Below are positions 1 to 9,424 of a DNA stretch of 64,000 bases, in pieces. Origin of the DNA: Macrostomum lignano (lineage: Eukaryota); assembly GCA_002269645.1 (NCBI GenBank), contig NIVC01001598.1, forward strand, positions 115,692 through 179,691. The letters are read 5' to 3'. Every line of letters starts with the position of its first letter. Positions within the stretch are counted from its first letter, which is position 1. The notes under the pieces are model-generated. The model was not told the origin of the DNA. It searched no databases and worked only from the letters and a program-made list of their open reading frames with translations. Made by a program: the position numbers and the translations under genes.

Positions 1-583
1 AGAAAGCGACAGCATCAATCGAAACTAGTAGCAGCCAACGAATCAAAGAAGCGGTCGAAAGCCCCAAGAAGGATACGAAAGTAAAAACTGCCGAAAAATC
101 TACTTGCAGAACGTCGAGTGTGTGAACCGAGTGTTTTGCGCGAAATGGAGCCGCATGCCTGACTTGGACTGGGCGAGCGCACGGACATTTCGCAGACCAA
201 GAGCTCTTATCAATTTGCGAATAGGGAAATGTACAATCAACATTTTTCAGCGTTCTTTGTCTGCAATTGTATTCGGTTGTCGCTCCATCAACCAAGTTTT
301 GCGTCTTTTTCCTCAATGTAAACCAATTTCTGTTGTTGTTACCACTAGTACTTACCGCGCTGAAGTAGACAGATGGCCAAACTTTTTCCAAATTGCATAC
401 TCCGGGTCCCGCTGGGTGAAGTGGGAGTGTGAAGTTTTCAATGGAATAGTAATAAAGTCTCCATTTCGCAATGCTAAATGTTTATTATGCGGAAAGAATG
501 GCCGCCTTGTTTTCCTTGGAATACGAAACTTTAAAGAGCTCTGTCAAATGTACGATCATGTGACTAGCGTTTTGCATGTCTAA
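1..583 (+). CDS. TBP-like (TATA-binding protein fold) protein, 5' partial, apparent -1 frameshift at the A5 run 94-98
   Basis: Manual alignment to both TBP core repeats: YLQNVECVNRVFC vs QLQNIVSTVNLGC; RALINLRIGKCTINIF..IVFGCRSINQ vs FAAVIMRIREPRTTALIF..VCTGAKSEEQ; WECEVFNGIVIK..NGRLVFLGIRNFKELCQMYDHVTSVL vs [38 protein letters not shown]. There is no in-frame ATG before LQN. The frame starting at base 3 is open to 98 and joins this frame if one A is added. Confidence 0.75.
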
Positions 584-723
584 TCCATGTAGCTGTTGCG
601 TAACTTTACTGCTTTACCACTGTACCGAATTTGTATGTACGTACAAGCTGCTATGAAATTGTCTATAAATATATTGTGCATAAATTGCAGTGCACTGCAA
701 CCAACATCTTTTTGCTAAACAAA

Positions 724-1080
724 ATGACAAACGGAATCTCCAGACTATGTTCTTGTCGCGGCGAGCTCGCAGAGCTCGCCAAAGCCCGTCCCACTCTTCG
801 GCGGGCCATTATTCGAGGTGCAGGCAAGGAACTGATTCATTGTCTCTGTGAATTGAGTCACAACGTGCTCCGGGGAAATATCGATCTTTCTCCGAAACAG
901 TATCTACGATTAAAGCGATACAGAAGATCGTTGCGTGAATTGGCAGACACAAAATTGTCTATAAATAGGAAGAAGAATATGCTTCTCTCGAATCCTCAAG
1001 TTGGTGGTTTTCTACCCATCCTTGCATCCGTTGCTGCACCGCTAATATCAAGCCTGTTTGGCGGACTACTTGGTCGCTAA
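724..1080 (+). CDS. Basic Maverick core protein with adenovirus pX/Mu-like C-terminus (118 aa)
   Basis: K/R-rich body ending QVGG|FLPILASVAAPLISSLFGGLLGR, resembling adenovirus pX (MRGG|ILPLLIPLIAAAIG). ATG 724 is preferred over the GTG at 631 because a TATA-like motif sits at 663. Confidence 0.7.
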   Translation: MTNGISRLCSCRGELAELAKARPTLRRAIIRGAGKELIHCLCELSHNVLRGNIDLSPKQYLRLKRYRRSLRELADTKLSINRKKNMLLSNPQVGGFLPILASVAAPLISSLFGGLLGR

Positions 1081-1081
1081 A

Positions 1082-1732
1082 ATGAATAAATACGTTGTTG
1101 TACCAGAAGAAGAATTTAATAGACTAAGTCAAGGCGCACCCCGAGAAATTGCATCCAAAACAGAATATGAAAAACTCATTGAATACAACACTCAACTCCA
1201 AAATAAACTAAGTCAGATCAAGCAAAAGAAGAGTAATCGTTTTCCTGAACGACAACAACGTGTTTGGGACATGCTGACAGAAAGATACCCAAATTTGGAG
1301 TACAACAAGTCGTGGGAAATTGTATTTGATGGAAAAACCTGGCCAGGAAGCAATATTTTCGATCTATTGAAGGAGATTACATCGAATGAAAGGCGCGACC
1401 GCCCAAGCCCAAAATATAGTACCGCTTTTTGGGCCCTGACCGAAGAGGTAGATATTGCAAAAGCTCTACAAGGACGACGCCAACAAGAAGAAGTCAGTGT
1501 GAAAAAAGAAGTCGGCACGGATCCGGATCGAGACGATTTTTTAGTCGAGCAAGCAATTGGAACTAATGATTTCTACAACGACTTCCACAAAGACCAAGCC
1601 AGTGGCCTGAATGAAATTAAAAAATATGAAGATCGTGGCAGCGATGCCTACAGGCATGCTTCATACCAACTTCGCGAACCAAAGAGGCGGCAGAAACCAG
1701 CAGTAAAATACGAGACGTTAAAAAAACTATAA
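1082..1732 (+). CDS. Conserved Maverick hypothetical protein
   Basis: ATG directly follows the upstream stop (TAAAATG). MNKYVVVPEEEF start and WEIVFDGKTWPGSNIFDLL motif resemble an ORF commonly adjacent to Maverick integrases; function unknown. Confidence 0.65.
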   Translation: MNKYVVVPEEEFNRLSQGAPREIASKTEYEKLIEYNTQLQNKLSQIKQKKSNRFPERQQRVWDMLTERYPNLEYNKSWEIVFDGKTWPGSNIFDLLKEITSNERRDRPSPKYSTAFWALTEEVDIAKALQGRRQQEEVSVKKEVGTDPDRDDFLVEQAIGTNDFYNDFHKDQASGLNEIKKYEDRGSDAYRHASYQLREPKRRQKPAVKYETLKKL

Positions 1733-1869
1733 ATAGAAATCATTTTCATGATTTATAATCTGTTTTTGGATCATGGGTGCCGCAGCTGTAACTTCAAAGC
1801 TTTGCTCAGACAAACCGTCTGTGGAGTTCAAGTGTAATTACTCATGCTGTGCATCGAATCTAGTTGCGA

Positions 1870-2937
1870 ATGAGGGTGAAAACCGCTCTTCGGAGAGTGT
1901 ACGAACAGGGGGACGCCGCTTTTACAAATGCTGCCCGTGTATATCAGGAGGCCAAACGGCTGGTCCCCTCCCTGACGAGACGCCAAACAGACGAATGGCT
2001 GAAGACCCAATCGAGCTACACCCGGCACAAGAGGGTTAAAAGAAAATTCCAAACCGGAAAAGTAATGTCAGGAGGCTTCATGGAAACTGTGCAAGCGGAT
2101 TTGATGGACATGTCACGATACGAACAATGGAATGATGGTCATCGATATATTCTAGTTGCAATTGACGTGCTTAGTAAATTGGCTTTTTGTCAGTCAATAA
2201 AATTGAAAAGCGACACTCCAAAGGCTTTTGAAAGCATGATCAAAGACTTCCCCATTAAGCCTTTATATCTACACGTTGATCGAGGTACCGAGTTTTATAA
2301 CAATCGCATGCAGAACTTACTGAAAGCCCATAATATCAAAATGTACAGTACAAACTCTGTATACAAGGCAAATATGGCTGAAAGGCTGATTAGGACTCTC
2401 CGAAAACGTTTAGCTCGCTACTTTGAGCATAAAAACACGTGGCGTTGGATCGACTATTTGCCAATATTGGTTAAAAGTTACAACAACACAGTACACTCTA
2501 CTATTGATATGAAACCTTCGAGTGTCGGTCTGCACAATCAAAAAGAATTGTGGGAAAAGCTCTACAAGGATCCTGAATATGATGAACCAGTTTACCAAAA
2601 AGGGGACTTTGTCAGAATTTCAAAATCTCGTCGAGCCTTTGACAAGGAAGCATACGATATGTACAGCGAAGAAGTTTACGTTGTGTCTCAAGTATGCCCG
2701 GGACCGCCTCATTTTTATCGCATTTCCGACCTATCTGGAGAACAAATCGAGGGTCGATTCTACTATAATGAACTTTCAAAGACGGTTCGACCGGACCGCT
2801 TTGTTATAGACAAAATTCTGCGTCGCAATGTCATCATCAATGGTGTCGCTCATCATTTCGTTAGTTGGCGCGGCTATCCCGAGTCGTTCAATGCATTTGT
2901 ACCAGTTGAGGAAGTTATAAATATAAGACAAGGATGA
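1870..2937 (+). CDS. Retroviral-type (rve) DDE integrase with C-terminal chromodomain
   Basis: QADLMDM (D), YILVAIDVLSK, HVDRGTEF (D), AERLIRTL (E), YNNTVHSTIDMKP; chromodomain FVIDKIL...FVSWRGYPESFNAFVP. Open and intact. Confidence 0.95.
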   Translation: MRVKTALRRVYEQGDAAFTNAARVYQEAKRLVPSLTRRQTDEWLKTQSSYTRHKRVKRKFQTGKVMSGGFMETVQADLMDMSRYEQWNDGHRYILVAIDVLSKLAFCQSIKLKSDTPKAFESMIKDFPIKPLYLHVDRGTEFYNNRMQNLLKAHNIKMYSTNSVYKANMAERLIRTLRKRLARYFEHKNTWRWIDYLPILVKSYNNTVHSTIDMKPSSVGLHNQKELWEKLYKDPEYDEPVYQKGDFVRISKSRRAFDKEAYDMYSEEVYVVSQVCPGPPHFYRISDLSGEQIEGRFYYNELSKTVRPDRFVIDKILRRNVIINGVAHHFVSWRGYPESFNAFVPVEEVINIRQG

Positions 2938-2971
2938 ACACACATACACTCGAAACGTGTAGTATATTACA

Positions 2972-4126
2972 ATGCATCTATTCCTACCTAGCAATGCGTG
3001 CGTTGAGCACTATCCTGAGAATAATTCGGCACATTATAGCATTAATTTGCCCGACACCCTCCACTTTCCGAATCATGAAGTCTGCATCGAACGGATCTAC
3101 TTTTGTAAAGAATTCAAAACCGTCCCCGATAATCGAATGGTTGATGTCCTGACCAACGCTCCCGAGGATGAAGTGATTGACATTGAGGTGAGAGAAAAAC
3201 CCGCCTCCACGTATAAACAGTTTGCGTCGGTTTCTCTCGCCGCGGGGCTATCAACAGCCAACGAAGTGGTTGATGCAATCATCGCCGATCTAAAATATGA
3301 GCAAGACGATAATGCGATGATTTGCATTGAGCGTTCACAGGAAGGCCAAATTTCAATTGTGAACAAATCATGGTATGGTGCGAACATTAGGCTGTCCAGT
3401 AATGTGCGTAGCATGTTTAAAAAGGTTGATGACGCTGGAAATAAATCAAATATCGAAGTAACGACTTTTTTATTAAACCCAAGAAATTCGTTAGTATTCG
3501 CTATAGAATTGGAGTCCTCCTCCTCCATAGAGAGTCCGATGACTCTAACGTTTGAAAAGAGTGTCTGGCCTTCTAGAACGTCACTGCGGATTGCTAAAGG
3601 ATTCTACCGCACGCCTGACGAGCTCTTAAATTATGTTAATGGAGCGCTTTGGAGCGTCGTTTCAAAGCTCCCAATAAGTCCAGCGACGAGAGTGGATGCA
3701 TTCCACTACAACCCTTTTCTGAACCGGTGTGAGTACAAACCCATTGAAAACATTTTATTCGACATTGGAGAGCTTGCTGCCATTCTCGGCTTTCGCGAAG
3801 ATGTTTTCAATGAAACTCCAAAGACCGCTAAACGACCAATCGATTTAACAAATGGTGTACAAACTATGTACATCTATTCAAATATTGTCGACTCTGCCAT
3901 TGTTGGAGACGTCAAAGTCCCCCTGCTTGGGGCAATTCCTTTGAATGAAAAGGTATACGGCGAACGAGAGTACTACGAGTTTGTCAATCCATCCTACTTA
4001 CCGTTGGTGAAACACCCATTCAAAACCATTGAGGTGCAAATCTGTGACGATATGGGCAAGTTAATGGATCGGATTCTTCGAGGCAAAACTGTTTTATCGA
4101 TCAACATTCGTGAAATTAAGCTATAA
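2972..4126 (+). CDS. Minor capsid protein (penton, single jelly-roll), 384 aa
   Basis: N-terminal LFLPSNACVEHYPENNSAHYSINLP and C-terminal MYIYSNIVDSAIVGDVKVPLL...YLPLVKHPFKTIEVQICDDMG are typical of Polinton minor capsid proteins. Confidence 0.88.
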   Translation: MHLFLPSNACVEHYPENNSAHYSINLPDTLHFPNHEVCIERIYFCKEFKTVPDNRMVDVLTNAPEDEVIDIEVREKPASTYKQFASVSLAAGLSTANEVVDAIIADLKYEQDDNAMICIERSQEGQISIVNKSWYGANIRLSSNVRSMFKKVDDAGNKSNIEVTTFLLNPRNSLVFAIELESSSSIESPMTLTFEKSVWPSRTSLRIAKGFYRTPDELLNYVNGALWSVVSKLPISPATRVDAFHYNPFLNRCEYKPIENILFDIGELAAILGFREDVFNETPKTAKRPIDLTNGVQTMYIYSNIVDSAIVGDVKVPLLGAIPLNEKVYGEREYYEFVNPSYLPLVKHPFKTIEVQICDDMGKLMDRILRGKTVLSINIREIKL

Positions 4127-4170
4127 ATAAAGAAGTTTTCACGAATAAAAGGTAGCAACTGATCGACAAT

Positions 4171-4512
4171 ATGCCTTCAATCTTGATCGGAGGAGCTTTA
4201 CCGGTATTTTCCGGTGCACAGCGCGGCAACGGCCTGTTTGGCAGCATTGCCCGATTTGCCCTGCCAATTTTAAAGAGTTTTGGCAAAAATATTCTTCGCC
4301 ACGGAACACGAGCCCTAGCTACAACAGTTAGCGACACACTCGATCAAGGCGGGAACTTGAAAGAAGCGGCATTGCGTAACTCTGTCCAGGCAGCTAAAGA
4401 TGCTTTCAAGGACACAGTCGCACAACGAGGTAGCGGCAGACAAAGACGAAGAAAGATGACTAACAAAAAACGAGAAAAAGACTGCAGCATTCTGATATTT
4501 TCGACTCTATAA
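4171..4512 (+). CDS. Small protease-processed core/membrane-active protein (113 aa)
   Basis: QRGNG followed by the amphipathic LFGSIARFALPILKSFGKNILRHG; a second QRGSG is followed by a basic tail RQRRRKMTNKKREK. Lies between penton and MCP. Confidence 0.7.
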   Translation: MPSILIGGALPVFSGAQRGNGLFGSIARFALPILKSFGKNILRHGTRALATTVSDTLDQGGNLKEAALRNSVQAAKDAFKDTVAQRGSGRQRRRKMTNKKREKDCSILIFSTL

Positions 4513-4581
4513 ATAAAAAAACCCGTGCCAATAACTGATCTGTCTATTAGAGCACCACACTAAGCCGCTGTTGAAAGAAAA

Positions 4582-5863
4582 ATGACTGAGTGCCTGTGTA
4601 CAAAGTCGGAATTCGAGCTTTTGCTCCTCGCGCACACCAAATTGCTGCAATTAGCGCCACCACTGAAGAAGTTCACCCTGTTGCCAGTGTTGAAAATGCC
4701 AGCGTGGTCGAATTTAGGATTGTTGGTGGTGAGACGTTTATCGATCTTAACGACATTGACCTCGAGATTAAGGCCCGCGTTAAGCAGTCTAATGGTACAA
4801 ATCTTGCTGCTGATTCGAATGTTGCGCCGGTCAATTACGTCCTTGAAAGCATGTTTAAAAACGTCACGTTGACAATCAACGGGACACACGTAGAGTCGAG
4901 CAATAACAACCACGCTTACAAGGCCTATATTCGCACGTGTTTGAATTACGGACACGATTCAAAAACCAATCAACTGAGAATGATGGGCTACGCAAAGGAC
5001 GCTGGAGGTCAAATGGCTGTGGTTGGAAATCCTGGCTTTGTAGCCCGCAAGGCGATGGCGGCAAACTCACGCACCTTTCACCTTTATGGACCTCTTAGTT
5101 TAGACTTTTTTGTTACCAACGACCGAATGCTACTGCCATACACTGATATGGTAATTACGCTGACCATGCACAATTCCGGCTTCGTTCTGGAAAACCACGC
5201 GGACGGGGTTGATGCGCGGCTAGTACTCGAGAGTGCCAAACTACATGTGCGCCGCGTCAAGGCAAACCCCCAATTGGCATTGGAGATTGAAGAACAACTA
5301 GGCAAACAGAATGCAATCTATCCGATTGAGCGACTTGTTGTGCACAATACTTCAGTGGCTGGCGGTGTTCGGGACATGTCAATCAATAATATATTTCCTG
5401 AACAAAAGCCTAAACTAGTGGTTGTTGGCATGGTGAACAGCGGCGCATACAACGGTGTGGCTACACATAACCCGTTTAATTTTGAACCGTTTGGGCAGAC
5501 AGTGTCGCTCTGTATAAGGACGGAGTCAGTCTGTGTGGACAACCGTTTACTCCTCGATTCGGTGTTCATAACTATGCTCGCGAGTATGCCATGCTACTAA
5601 AAAGCCTAGGAAAGATGAATCGGGACCTGGATATTGACGTATCATATTCCGACTATGGAGCTGGCTACTGCTTCTTCGCCTGGAATCTCATGCCCGACAT
5701 GGAGCTGGGCGGGCATAGCATGCCTCGCGAGCGAGGGAATCTGACGCTACAAATAAAGTTTTCTGCTGCCTTGGCCGCAGGAATCAACGTGTTGGTGTTT
5801 GGCTACTTTGACAATACTGTGCAAATCACTCGCGGTCGTCAGGTTATTCTAGACTACGTGTAG
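4582..5863 (+). CDS. Major capsid protein (double jelly-roll), ~427 aa when two -1 frameshifts are corrected
   Basis: MTECLCTKSEFEL(F) start, FIDLNDIDLEIK, APVNYVLESMFKNV, NPFNFEPF, YSDYGAGYCFFAWNLMPD, GNLTLQIKF, YFDNTVQITRGRQVILDYV. Adding one T at 4619-4622 and one G at 5493-5495 joins track ORFs 4582, 4590 and 5591 into one frame. Confidence 0.92.
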
Positions 5864-5913
5864 AAACAAACATCTCTTTTTTATTCTCGAATAACGACCA
5901 TATTCATGCCGAT

Positions 5914-6338
5914 ATGAATAGTCTAGATATATTAGAACGTCTAATACTACCTGTCCCTGTTCGAGTAACACCAGTTGACAGGATTCCGCAGCCTGTTTAT
6001 CCTGCTGCAATCTACCAGGCACTCACTGGGCTTTAATTTGTCTTCATGCCGATGAGAGCGTGACATTTTTTGACCCCTTGTGTATCGATCCTGTGCCAGA
6101 TTTATTAAAGTTGTGGATCGCAAAGTATGTCCCTGTGGAGGTGGCCATGAACCGGCATCCTGTACAGCATCCGCTGAGTGTGACCTGCGGGGCTCATGTA
6201 ATATTTGTGGCTGAAAAACACTTTCTGGAGGGTCTGTCAATTGAAAAAATATTGCGCGACTGTTATAGCACAAATCTTTACGAGAACGACTTGATGGTGC
6301 AGAATCACTGTCTACAAATAAAGCAGCATCATCCATAA
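5914..6338 (+). CDS. Adenain-like cysteine protease, frameshifted near 6010-6013
   Basis: Second frame has PGTHW (His), FFDP (Asp) and QHPLSVTCGAH (Gln/Cys). First frame reads MNSLDIL...TPVDRIPQPVYPAA. The frames differ by -1 and the usual hhNTD strand before PGxHW is missing. Confidence 0.85.
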
Positions 6339-6340
6339 AT

Positions 6341-6991
6341 ATGATTGGGCGGCCTATCAAAATGTATCAAACAATAGACCCCGATTCTTTAAAATTTGCC
6401 CCCAAAACGTCGGCAATTTTTGCTGGGGTGGCTCAAAGCGGCAAGACCACACTTGTGAAAAACCTATTGAGACAAGAATTTTTTCAAGATCCGAAGCCGA
6501 TTCGCGTTGACTGGTTTGGCCACTATCCGGATCCTGAACTGTTTGAATTGCCGTACCCTGTAAATTTTCGTTCGTGTACATTTGATCCTGAACAATATGT
6601 CCCTGAACCAAATATTCTGCTTGTCGTCGACGACCAAATGCATGTCATGGAAAAGAGTGGCGCTTTTACAACTTTTTTCACGCGCAAAGTCTCCCACGTG
6701 GGGTTCCGACTTTGGTATCTTGTGCAAAACCTGTTTGCAAAGGGTAAGGAGCACCGAACTCAGTCGCTCAATTCTAACTACCTTGTTTTATTCCGCAATG
6801 TACGGGATGCCAGCACAGTGTCTCATATTGCAAGGCAGCTGGTCCCCACTAATCCAAAAAGTTTTGTCAAAACGTATGAGGATGCTACTCGCGACCCCTA
6901 CTCATACTTGATTGTAAACTGTTTGCAAAATGCTCCTGCTCGCTATTATTCAAACGTTTTGGGTCGTCACCCAATTGTGTATGCTAAATAA
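6341..6991 (+). CDS. A32/FtsK-like DNA packaging ATPase
   Basis: Walker A GVAQSGKTT, Walker B ILLVVDD, then LVQNLF and RTQSLNSNYLVLFRNVRD. Intact; the start could be 6341 or 6362. Confidence 0.93.
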   Translation: MIGRPIKMYQTIDPDSLKFAPKTSAIFAGVAQSGKTTLVKNLLRQEFFQDPKPIRVDWFGHYPDPELFELPYPVNFRSCTFDPEQYVPEPNILLVVDDQMHVMEKSGAFTTFFTRKVSHVGFRLWYLVQNLFAKGKEHRTQSLNSNYLVLFRNVRDASTVSHIARQLVPTNPKSFVKTYEDATRDPYSYLIVNCLQNAPARYYSNVLGRHPIVYAK

Positions 6992-7224
6992 ATATACGTA
7001 TCAAAGCTCGGCTGGCTTTTTGTGTAAATATATATACGCCTTTTGAAAACTTATTTGGGAGAGGGGTTGGTGGATGACGTAATTGTCTCGGAGTGTCGAC
7101 GAGGGCTGAATTCTAGAGAATGAAGTATGGAAGGAGTGGATATAACAGTGTGGATAGCGGCGATTTACAGCGGCTGACTCATCATGCCTCCGCGCGCGGG
7201 GGGCGCCAATTTTGTAGGGGTCAC

Positions 7225-7455
7225 AGACAATTCTGTGCGTACATCAATTTTGGGTGTATATATGGACAAGTAATAATATGGACAGTTATGGGGTGGGCGG
7301 ACGCTACAATTCTGCGCGTACACCAATTTTGGGATGGACAGTAAATATGGACAAGTAATAATATGGACAGTTATGGGGTGAGTGGGCGCTCTAATTCTGC
7401 CAATTTTTGGTATATGGACAGTTAATATGGACAGTTAATTCTGCGTACACCAATG
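7225..7455. repeat. Maverick subterminal repeats (probably part of the terminal inverted repeat)
   Basis: ATGGACA seven times (7262, 7278, 7334, 7347, 7363, 7414, 7427), and an AATTCTG..CGTACAYCAAT block three times (~7229, ~7308, ~7437), in non-coding DNA after the last ORF. Confidence 0.7.
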
Positions 7456-8040
7456 CTGCATTGTGTGGGGATGGGGGCGCGCGCGTTTCTATACGTACAA
7501 CAACGGTGAAGCGCTAATTATGCGTACTATATTGTACTAGTCGTCGCTTCTGTACGATACAGTGTACACTGATTACATGTATAGATTTTACATGAGAGTA
7601 TAAATGTCTCACATAATGACTCTGGACCAATTAGAATCGGTCTAATGTATTTAGATAGGCGTTGAATTTGCATTGGCTCTGACACCCACCTCACCTCCAA
7701 AATCGACACTTATCTGCACGATACGTAGTGACACTGTCACTCTTACACAATTACACACACGCTGTCAGTGACACTTTAGTAAGTCACAAACCCTAGATTC
7801 ACAGATACAAACACAATCTTCACTAATCTTTATAGCTTTCAGATAAATAGATTCACAGGTCCTTAATTTACAGATTTTTATGACCAATTTACCATGTTCA
7901 AGCTGGTCAACAGCACCATAAGCCGTTTGGCTGCCTTCAGAGATACATTACCGATAGCATAAAATTGTACTTACTGAGTGACGTCATTGCATGCGACCCA
8001 ATTTCGACATGCGCTTGTGCTTCATAGCACCAGAGAGACC

Positions 8041-8313
8041 CATTAAGGTGTGGCATATCACCAGAGGACTCATTATGGTGTGTCATATCACTACAGGACT
8101 CATTAAGGTGTCATATCACCCGAGGACTCATTAAGGTGTGTCATATCACTAGAGGACTCATTAAGGTGTCATATCACCCGAGGACTCATTAAGGTGTGTC
8201 ATGTCACCAGAGGACTCATTGAAGTGTGTCATATCACTAGAGGGCTCAATAAGGTGTGTCATATCACCCGAGGACTCATTAAGGTGTGTCATATCACCAG
8301 AGGACTCATTAAG
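8041..8313. repeat. 28-30 bp minisatellite, ~9 copies
   Basis: CATTAAGGTGTGTCATATCACCAGAGGACT units. Confidence 0.9.
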
Positions 8314-9005
8314 ATGGTGTTAAGAACGTCAGCTTCATTAATGAACAAACAAATTTACAGGCAACTATCATTACACCTTACGCTCGCATGTAAGCGGTGA
8401 AAGCTCAAGTAAGCATTCAATCAGTAGCTCAGCTGACAGCTGAACAAATTTGCATTATATTTGCGGTGGGCCGTGAACACTGATATAATACTGAGCTAAG
8501 TAGCCGTGAGCGCGAACTCTCAAGCACAATTTCGCGAACTCGTTTAAGCAGGTTGCCGCGGCAAAAAAAGCAGAATGAATCTTTTTCAAAAAGCAACAAA
8601 ATGGCAACTGATGCGAGAGGCCAAGCATCCCAGACCAGGGCGGTAGATTGTCGGGTGTGGCACAGACGTTCTTGGGCTGATAACATTCTGATTGGGGCTG
8701 GTAACATTCTTATCCGGCAACATGCGATCTGGATCTTAGAAATAGATTTACAGGGACAAAATAGACACAATTTTGATAGATTTGTAATTTATGCAAAAAT
8801 GCGAAATTAATATTGCAACAGCGAGTGCAAAGGTGAACAATGCAAGGTGATGTGGCGATCAATAAATTGCAATTGCAAAACTAAAAAAGTCTGCATTCCA
8901 AGCTTCGTTGTGACAATTTTGCTTTAAAATTTGTAATAGAGAATATACAAAGGCTTGCAGTGCTTAGCGAGAAGGCACAAAATTAAAAGAAAAAACCACC
9001 TGTCA

Positions 9006-9424
<419 letters not shown>

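Follow-up and report, generated by a model that had tools for sequence, protein, structure and literature searches.

A conserved TATA-like box before most structural genes of Maverick-type elements in Macrostomum lignano, and a TBP-like protein as its candidate reader

Introduction

Beta- and gamma-herpesviruses have a gene for a TBP of their own (BcRF1 in Epstein-Barr virus (EBV), ORF24 in KSHV, the Kaposi's sarcoma-associated herpesvirus, and UL87 in cytomegalovirus (CMV)), and their late box reads TATT/TATTWAA, as described in the accessible parts of two papers (PMC4893493, PMC12529657). The present work deals with a possible counterpart in a stretch of 64,000 nucleotides (nt) from Macrostomum lignano (assembly GCA_002269645.1, contig NIVC01001598.1, positions 115,692 to 179,691 of the forward strand), referred to in its whole length as the window. 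A Maverick-type element of 10,151 bp has its right three quarters at positions 1-7729; a short TATA-like box recurs along it, and it carries a gene for a TBP-like protein. The genome contains many near-identical copies of this element (family A), copies of a sister family (B; 71% nucleotide identity, with an ATPase 86% identical in the genome search) and more distant families.

As in the Mavericks/Polintons (adintoviruses), insofar as these are covered by the available parts of the sources (PMC6431247, PMC8502044, 10.1101/697771), terminal inverted repeats (TIRs), a 6-bp duplication, an rve integrase, a putative packaging ATPase, a double-jelly-roll capsid and a probable protease are found here; unlike in them, the stretches tested of families A and B are without a protein-primed polymerase. 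In the accessible text of the adintovirus papers, TBP is named nowhere but in figure legends, as a label, where non-animal datasets are treated, and the word "promoter" is absent from that text in either version (PMC8502044, 10.1101/697771). Nothing on Maverick promoters or on the function of a Maverick TBP was found in the literature searched, which included few subscription papers and no supplements. New in this work are the family-specific boxes within one genome, a spacing test, the contrast with TBP-less Mavericks and a predicted splice.

By analogy, the Maverick box and TBP would work like the herpesvirus system without being a member of it. Both follow the logic of a nuclear DNA virus, with canonical TATA boxes for early genes, one short variant box that takes the place of TATA before structural genes, and a protein of TBP fold, encoded by the virus, whose DNA-binding face is altered. 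In contrast to the herpesvirus pre-initiation complex, the Maverick lineage is unrelated, its TBP is small (~160-190 amino acids, aa) and of apparent cellular origin, counterparts of the five partner proteins were not seen, and the box, known here from sequence alone, varies between sister groups and is canonical in family A. The consensus of the TATA box is TATAWAWR. With cellular TBP and the TATA box of RNA polymerase II (PF00352), the element shares the TBP fold, a box (TATAAATA) that fits this consensus and an apparent spacing of ~30 nt, although its protein is only 20-23% identical to host TBP, with altered intercalating and hydrogen-bonding residues and a predicted splice fusion to an upstream domain. 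The late promoters of poxviruses (TAAAT(G)), baculoviruses (TAAG) and virophages or giant viruses are likewise short AT-rich motifs with a TAA core before late genes; unlike the Maverick box, which keeps a gap of at least 33-37 nt before the start codon, they contain the transcription start and serve a viral RNA polymerase.

A conserved box before most structural genes

On the evidence of its occurrence, conservation and spacing, the box is very probably the promoter of most structural genes of the element. We lean towards regarding it as a late promoter that is recognized, in the manner of the herpesvirus TATT box, by the TBP of the element itself.

Nine 9-mers had been listed in the initial annotation of this DNA (663, 959, 1727, 2915, 4121, 4507, 5747, 6312 and 6333), and all of them are present at these positions. 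Allowing at most one mismatch, CTATAAATA matches exactly these nine sites in positions 1-7100 of the window, all on the + strand and none on the - strand, and the six copies of (C/T)TATAAATA are likewise confined to the coding strand. Enrichment over a codon-shuffled background, which had been named as a test, was borne out, as the five copies of CTATAAATA compare with 0.06 in 5000 synonymous-codon resamplings (maximum 2; 0/5000 reach five) and with 0.03 in 300 dinucleotide shuffles (maximum 2). For YTATAAATA, six copies stand against 0.07 in the dinucleotide shuffles and 0.11 in the codon resamplings.

Seven of the nine sites (663, 959, 1727, 2915, 4121, 4507 and 6312) have a counterpart in family B. 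Six of these align directly, and the counterpart of 663, TTATAAATA (locus L023, position 3129), is found in the corresponding gap between genes, although the aligner misplaced it. The position equivalent to 5747 reads CTACAGATA in family B and the 6333 site is absent there; both sites are likely incidental. Three conserved sites fall inside unrelated proteins in the same frame, xATA-AAT-A (SINR, VINI and SINK/TINK), and among them the boxes at 959 and 2915 are embedded in coding sequence, as had been reported; the chance of the 959 box arising from the protein sequence alone is 0.010. Taking into account that the box is kept in these coding frames while about half of the synonymous codons differ between A and B, the DNA word itself is under selection. 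Within family A all sites are invariant, the incidental ones too, so that a comparison inside this family is without power. The TATAWAWR consensus is fitted by six of the seven conserved sites, the one at 6312 being TACAAATA. In host flanking sequence, TATAAATA accounts for 4 of 49 TATAWAWR words, yet this one variant serves every structural-gene site.

The promoter role proposed in the initial annotation is supported by TATA-box spacing for most structural genes, but not for every viral gene, as had been claimed: the protease gene and the TBP-like frame are without a conserved box, and ORF4 in the left arm uses GGGTATATAAG. No conserved box precedes the protease in any family viewed.

To the left of the window, at positions 8112-9173 of locus L021, family A retains a CTATAAATA without a long open reading frame (ORF) behind it, where family B has a gene of 117 aa. 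In the left arm of family A, a short internal duplication sets a second GGGTATATAAG before ORF3.

Spacing between the box and the start codon

Across the nine TBP-bearing families (A to H, and J), the first ATG that stands 34 nt or more beyond the TAA core, a gap picked from the scan itself, opens an ORF of at least 80 aa at 45 of 56 sites, as against a fraction of 0.29 at random positions. Without a gap, 29/56 sites do so; the count peaks at the 34-nt gap and drops to 27 at 50 nt. The 11 missing sites, several of them frameshifted or short ORFs, are kept in the count. ATGs nearer than 34 nt open such an ORF in only 7 of 33 cases, and the shortest accepted offset is 37 nt. This spacing fits a transcription start ~30 nt past the box, that is, a TATA box, with ATGs close to the cap being passed over, and speaks indirectly for the 25-32 nt that separate a polymerase II TATA box from its start.

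Distances from each motif to the next ATG had been reported which are in fact distances to gene starts, the true next-ATG values being 61, 20, 21, 19, 50, 75, 159, 29 and 8 nt. In the window, the gap rule skips the ATGs at 979, 1748, 2934 and 6341 and yields the ATPase start at 6362, common to family B. The gene nearest the 1727 box is an ORF starting MGAAA (1773, 46 nt away) and not the integrase (143 nt). Since this ORF, whose start suggests a possible myristoylation, is the first gene behind that box, the integrase may need leaky scanning.

Group-specific boxes in other Maverick families

The nine TBP-bearing families fall into groups, each with its own box: TATAAATA, TATAAGCA, YATAAGAA or CTTAAGAA, the last of which departs from TATAWAWR. 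On the coding and the other strand, respectively, YTAYAAATA was counted 9/0 times in A and 8/0 in B, TATAAGYA 5/0 in C, 5/0 in D, 4/0 in H and 5/0 in J, YATAAGAA 6/0 in E, and YTTAAGAA 7/1 in both F and G, the boxes of C to J having been picked by eye and from k-mer counts in the same upstream windows that were later scored. The table of families by motifs is nearly diagonal, with at most two off-diagonal matches on the coding strand. The box groups agree with clades in the trees of TBP and of the ATPase, some of these clades being poorly supported and on long branches. A canonical TATATAAG serves the early-side genes (ORF4 and a PC4 coactivator gene) of A, B, J, F and G.

The relation between box and TBP proposed in the initial annotation was strengthened, in that the other TBP-bearing families have group-specific boxes which are nearly absent from TBP-less Mavericks. 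In a distant Maverick group, 23 loci gave no TBP match, and one more locus, L119, gave a match outside the gene block. The spaced box precedes 4 of 61 ORFs in this TBP-less group against 32 of 71 in the TBP-bearing families, whereas a TAAA+ run touching the ATG is found at 35/61 and 2/71 ORFs, respectively.

The TBP-less group (L124, L135-L152) is large, Maverick- or Polinton-like virus (PLV)-like and AT-rich, with fibre-like genes and TAAAA directly 5' of the ATG, an arrangement reminiscent of late promoters in poxviruses or of promoters on the linear plasmids of yeast; a polymerase of a helper or of the cytoplasm may serve this group. In families F and G, the PC4 coactivator gene (Pfam E=1e-7) is located behind a canonical TATA box (L035 3873-4535, L076, L111, L117), PC4 being a second general transcription factor in TBP-bearing elements.

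The TBP-like protein and its possible expression

The Pfam TBP model gives no match to the window copy; it scores the family-B copy at E=1.2e-4 (22.3 bits, cut-off 22.9) and five other families at up to 1e-23. The 40 top Foldseek ranks are all TBP chains (E from 1.8e-4, TM score ~0.45, model pLDDT 51), and a PDB sequence search reached TBP at E=1.5 only. On this low-confidence model, the element protein is taken to be a real TBP-fold protein with the two-repeat saddle. Protein searches returned only two close TBP relatives, and in a profile search of representatives most matches were TBPs of cells and archaea, alongside copies of the elements. Between A and B, the protein is 77% identical, with 48% identical codons at identical residues, values similar to those of the integrase and the ATPase, and the gene is under purifying selection.

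Ahead of its first strand, the TBP frame is devoid of ATGs in families A, B, C, D and H, and in J there is one inside a pyrimidine tract. A phase-0 YAG directly precedes the conserved TBP part in 6/6 families; in C, D, H and J, the pyrimidine tract leading up to it is long. Upstream, in ORF4, a phase-0 GT donor is found at a similar peptide position in 6/6 families examined (L021 9713 and window 109; L068 3302-3644; L032, L153, L154). In family A, the acceptor ends at window position 109 and the ORF4 donor is 87 nt left of the window. Thus, TBP is predicted to be a second exon spliced to ORF4, the fusion being made from the early promoter. The acceptor in A and B is weak and a non-ATG start is an alternative, a close relative being called with Met there. 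In a search for a longer ORF4-TBP protein, two automated gene models turned up that lack the TBP part, which is weak evidence either way.

ORF4 of A and B matches nothing in Pfam or the Atlas, and its profile does not match that of ORF4 in C, D, H and J (probability 1.5%), so that homology between the two sets rests on position and donor context. In family C, ORF4 resembles viral DUF2738/Pox_I3 clusters (Atlas features 0.93 and 0.89), families carried by 10-12% of the members and known as single-strand DNA-binding proteins; this resemblance is a lead only. The unspliced ORF4 of C, D, H and J has an acidic tail at its end, as is typical of single-strand DNA-binding proteins. Other accessory genes of TBP-bearing families (L023 265-1044, L032 5872-6650, L127 3994-4659) include a Fic domain in B (Pfam 8e-14), a deoxynucleoside kinase adjoining TBP in D and H, and a dUTPase in H (Pfam) and probably in C.

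Overlap with stop codons and polyadenylation signals

A further proposal held that each gene ends in a 9-12-bp junction uniting stop codon, poly(A) signal and promoter, and this cannot be maintained as a rule. In the window copy, the box does overlap the upstream stop at 1727, 4121, 4507 and 6333, as had been noted, but the overlap is conserved only at 1727 and 4121 (2/7). In family B, the stop at 1727 is inside the box in another frame (TAG), and the 4507 box lies within the ORF, 8-9 codons before its stop, in family B and in 3/3 other family-A copies. Similarly, AATAAA overlaps are present at 4121, 4507, 5747, 6312 and the last stop (6987), the one at 5747 not being kept in B; if used, it would truncate the capsid mRNA 38 codons ahead of its stop. 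AATAAA is plausible as a poly(A) signal at 4126, 6317 and 6987, marginal at 4512 and implausible at 5752. AATAAA or ATTAAA stands near 4/10 stops in A and 6/13 in B (expected fraction 0.11-0.14) but near 7/74 in the seven other families scored, so that some boxes may double as poly(A) signals in A and B without this being a design rule. Some genes (capsid and protease, the MGAAA ORF and integrase, ORF4 and TBP) appear to share transcripts.

How the box may be read

It is proposed that host RNA polymerase II would first transcribe ORF4 from a canonical TATATAAG box, and that a spliced form of this RNA would join the N-terminal part of ORF4 to the TBP domain. The resulting protein would replace host TBP at the group-specific box, placed ~30 nt before the transcription start, and would there turn on the capsid, core, integrase and ATPase genes. 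The genome being compact, the box would lie on or inside the end of the preceding gene, leading to its overlaps with stops, and with AATAAA where AA follows. Co-occurrence and co-variation of TBP and box are what speak for reading by the element's protein, which we favour with reserve.

Several observations weigh against this proposal. Only three or four independent clades underlie the co-variation, which may thus reflect shared descent, and the TBP-less control is a distant group differing in many ways. The boxes of C to J were found and scored in the same windows, so that their enrichment is partly circular and optimistic, although strand bias and spacing are not circular; the spacing figures are themselves optimistic, given how the gap was chosen, and no initiator peak is found at +27 to +30 downstream of the boxes. 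Contigs from eight sequencing runs (seven guessed to be RNA, one of unknown type) cross the predicted intron unspliced and none carries the joint, contigs being unable to show transcript starts, ends or expression. In an alignment to host TBP which is uncertain at 20% identity, and with residue roles taken in part from PMC12529657, the A/B protein retains 2/4 intercalating Phe and 1/2 Asn. KSHV ORF24, according to the same paper, requires all four Phe (PMC12529657).

It is rather unlikely, though to be taken seriously, that host TBP recognizes the box as it would any TATA box, with the element's protein acting as a decoy for TBP partners, a repressor or a replication factor. The caveat of the initial annotation that host TBP could use the box stands for family A, where TATAAATA is perfectly canonical and host TBP would suffice, and both the host-like spacing and the degenerate DNA-binding face of the A/B protein agree with it. 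Moreover, BcRF1 binds TATA and TATT alike in vitro, according to the accessible part of PMC4893493, and a box variant alone is therefore no proof of a special reader. What argues for a dedicated reader is that a single variant occupies all sites, unlike the early-side TATATAAG, that sister groups have TATAAGCA and CTTAAGAA at equivalent positions, that the conserved CTACAAATA at 6312 is off consensus, and that TBP-less Mavericks are without the spaced box.

Two other functions seem improbable. The box might be an RNA-processing signal, for poly(A) addition or spliced-leader trans-splicing, cutting one long transcript into single mRNAs, as would suit Macrostomum lignano, a flatworm with trans-splicing, the AATAAA overlap at three conserved sites and its excess near A and B stops; contigs from the runs also cross gene borders, which shows no single transcript. 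Against this, acceptor-like sites between box and ATG are not enriched (3/45 vs 2.0 expected), a result on which the role of trans-splice acceptor was rejected, the boxes of other families are without AATAAA and few of their stops are near one, and the boxes at 959 and 2915 lie inside ORFs without AATAAA. The chances are equally slight for a poxvirus-type (TAAAT) or baculovirus-type (TAAG) late initiator, with the start inside the box and a helper-virus polymerase, despite the TAA core in all boxes, the match to these viral motifs and the want of a polymerase gene in A and B, which need help to replicate. If transcription began inside the box, the first ATGs met would be ones that open no gene (979, 1748, 2934), no accepted start is nearer than 33-37 nt, and the form of an initiator of this kind can be seen here in the TBP-less group, with TAAAA touching the ATG; in-box initiation was rejected on the 29/56 sites without a gap against 45/56 with it. 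A chance product of AT-rich gene ends and TAA stops would account for the unconserved sites at 5747 and 6333 and for the stop overlap of the window copy at 4507, but as a general account it is practically negligible, and it is refuted for the seven conserved sites by the resamplings, the strand counts (9 vs 0) and the conservation in family B.

The element, its genes and its surroundings

Coordinates are collected in Table 1. The Maverick/Polinton features found are long TIRs with a 6-bp duplication, the rve integrase and a double-jelly-roll major capsid protein; the putative packaging ATPase is a P-loop ORF with weak Pfam AAA matches only. The TIRs are ~600 nt long and 87% alike, the left one being at L021 7379-7934. 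The element's ends (L021 7379 and window 7729) read ACT...AGT, the reverse of the AG...CT found in most Polintons. By tblastn, a protein-primed polymerase had no match in the window nor in 15 family A/B loci, although the same query matched eight loci of families C, D, E, F, G, H and J (the match in C is a piece of 213 residues, and the C loci L029 and L069 and the E locus L071 are without one). Thus, A and B are non-autonomous Maverick-type elements.

The intact family-B capsid model is a double jelly roll (Foldseek: PBCV-1 Vp54, E=1e-17; mavirus capsid, 8e-15). No relatives of the capsid protein were found among viral contigs, and PDB sequence searches with the capsid and ORF4 profiles gave no matches. 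In the window copy, the genes for the capsid and the probable protease are broken by frameshifts. The ORF at 2972 is a probable minor capsid (penton) protein and that at 4171 a probable core protein; these names and that of the protease are tentative and given mainly from position, and the ORFs at 724 and 1082 are tentatively labelled PZ-like and PW-like, respectively.

Next to the right end of the element, at window positions 8037-8347, there is a host tandem repeat with units of ~30 nt. On its left, two similar minus-strand ORF fragments starting MLARSGSF (L022 8091-9629 and L021 3097-4564) probably belong to another repeat family.

Table 1. Features of the Maverick-type element along the window.
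Feature	Position	Strand	Remarks
TBP-like coding region	110..583	+	Open frame 32-583; sole in-frame ATG at 155, after the first predicted strand
Box CTATAAATA, intergenic	663..671	+	61 nt 5' of the ORF at 724; counterpart in family B; kept in 20/20 family-A matches
Conserved Maverick ORF, 118 aa	724..1080	+	78% identity to family B
Box CTATAAATA within the 724 ORF	959..967	+	S-I-N-R codons; ATG at +20 would be skipped; next is the gene start at 1082
ORF, 216 aa	1082..1732	+	From the ORF listing
Box CTATAAATA at the stop codon ending the 1082 ORF	1727..1735	+	First ATG beyond +34 is 1773
Cys-rich ORF starting MGAAA, 88-92 aa	1773..2039	+	Overlaps the integrase start; kept in family B (L023 4208-4486)
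rve integrase	1870..2937	+	Pfam rve E=2.5e-8; Chromo 0.055
Box TTATAAATA within the integrase 3' end	2915..2923	+	V-I-N-I codons; gene start at 2972, the ATG at +19 being passed over under the gap rule
ORF, 384 aa	2972..4126	+	No Pfam match
Box CTATAAATA over stop and AATAAA	4121..4131	+	Box, stop and AATAAA all kept in family B
Basic small ORF	4171..4512	+	113 aa in the window copy; 122 aa in three other family-A copies
Box CTATAAATA and AATAAA	4507..4517	+	75 nt 5' of the major capsid start; within coding sequence in other copies
Major capsid gene, frameshifted	4582..5863	+	Pieces in three frames; intact family-B protein modelled
CTACAAATA within the capsid gene	5747..5755	+	L-Q-I-K codons; not kept in B; next ATG opens 3 codons
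Adenain-type protease, probable, broken	5914..6338	+	Named from position and motifs; no Pfam match; without conserved upstream box
Variant box CTACAAATA and AATAAA near the protease end	6312..6322	+	Kept in B; 50 nt 5' of the ATG at 6362
CCATAAATA on the protease stop	6333..6341	+	Absent from family B
P-loop ATPase, putatively packaging	6362..6991	+	87% identity to B; start common to B; AATAAA at 6987 on the stop, kept in B
Right TIR	7150..7729		Element end reads ...ATACGTAGT
Target-site duplication GACACT, 6 bp	7730..7735		Second copy at L021 7373-7378

Significance

The question addressed is how Mavericks/Polintons express their capsid genes and whether those of animals have a real viral cycle. 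A conserved late box, together with a candidate reader encoded by the element, leads to exact predictions about start sites, the splice junction and specificity across families. It can tentatively be envisaged that animal Mavericks follow a two-stage transcription programme, with an early TATATAAG promoter for a DNA-binding protein, an alternatively spliced form of that protein bearing a re-specified TBP, and private pairs of TBP and box (TATAAATA, TATAAGCA, CTTAAGAA), co-evolved in each lineage and separating co-resident families, capsid expression being possibly tied to replication. Should the late box and its candidate reader act as proposed, the viral-TBP strategy of beta/gamma-herpesviruses would have arisen a second time, independently, and the TBPs of these elements, altered in specificity, would form a natural series within a family that shows hardly any variation among its cellular members.

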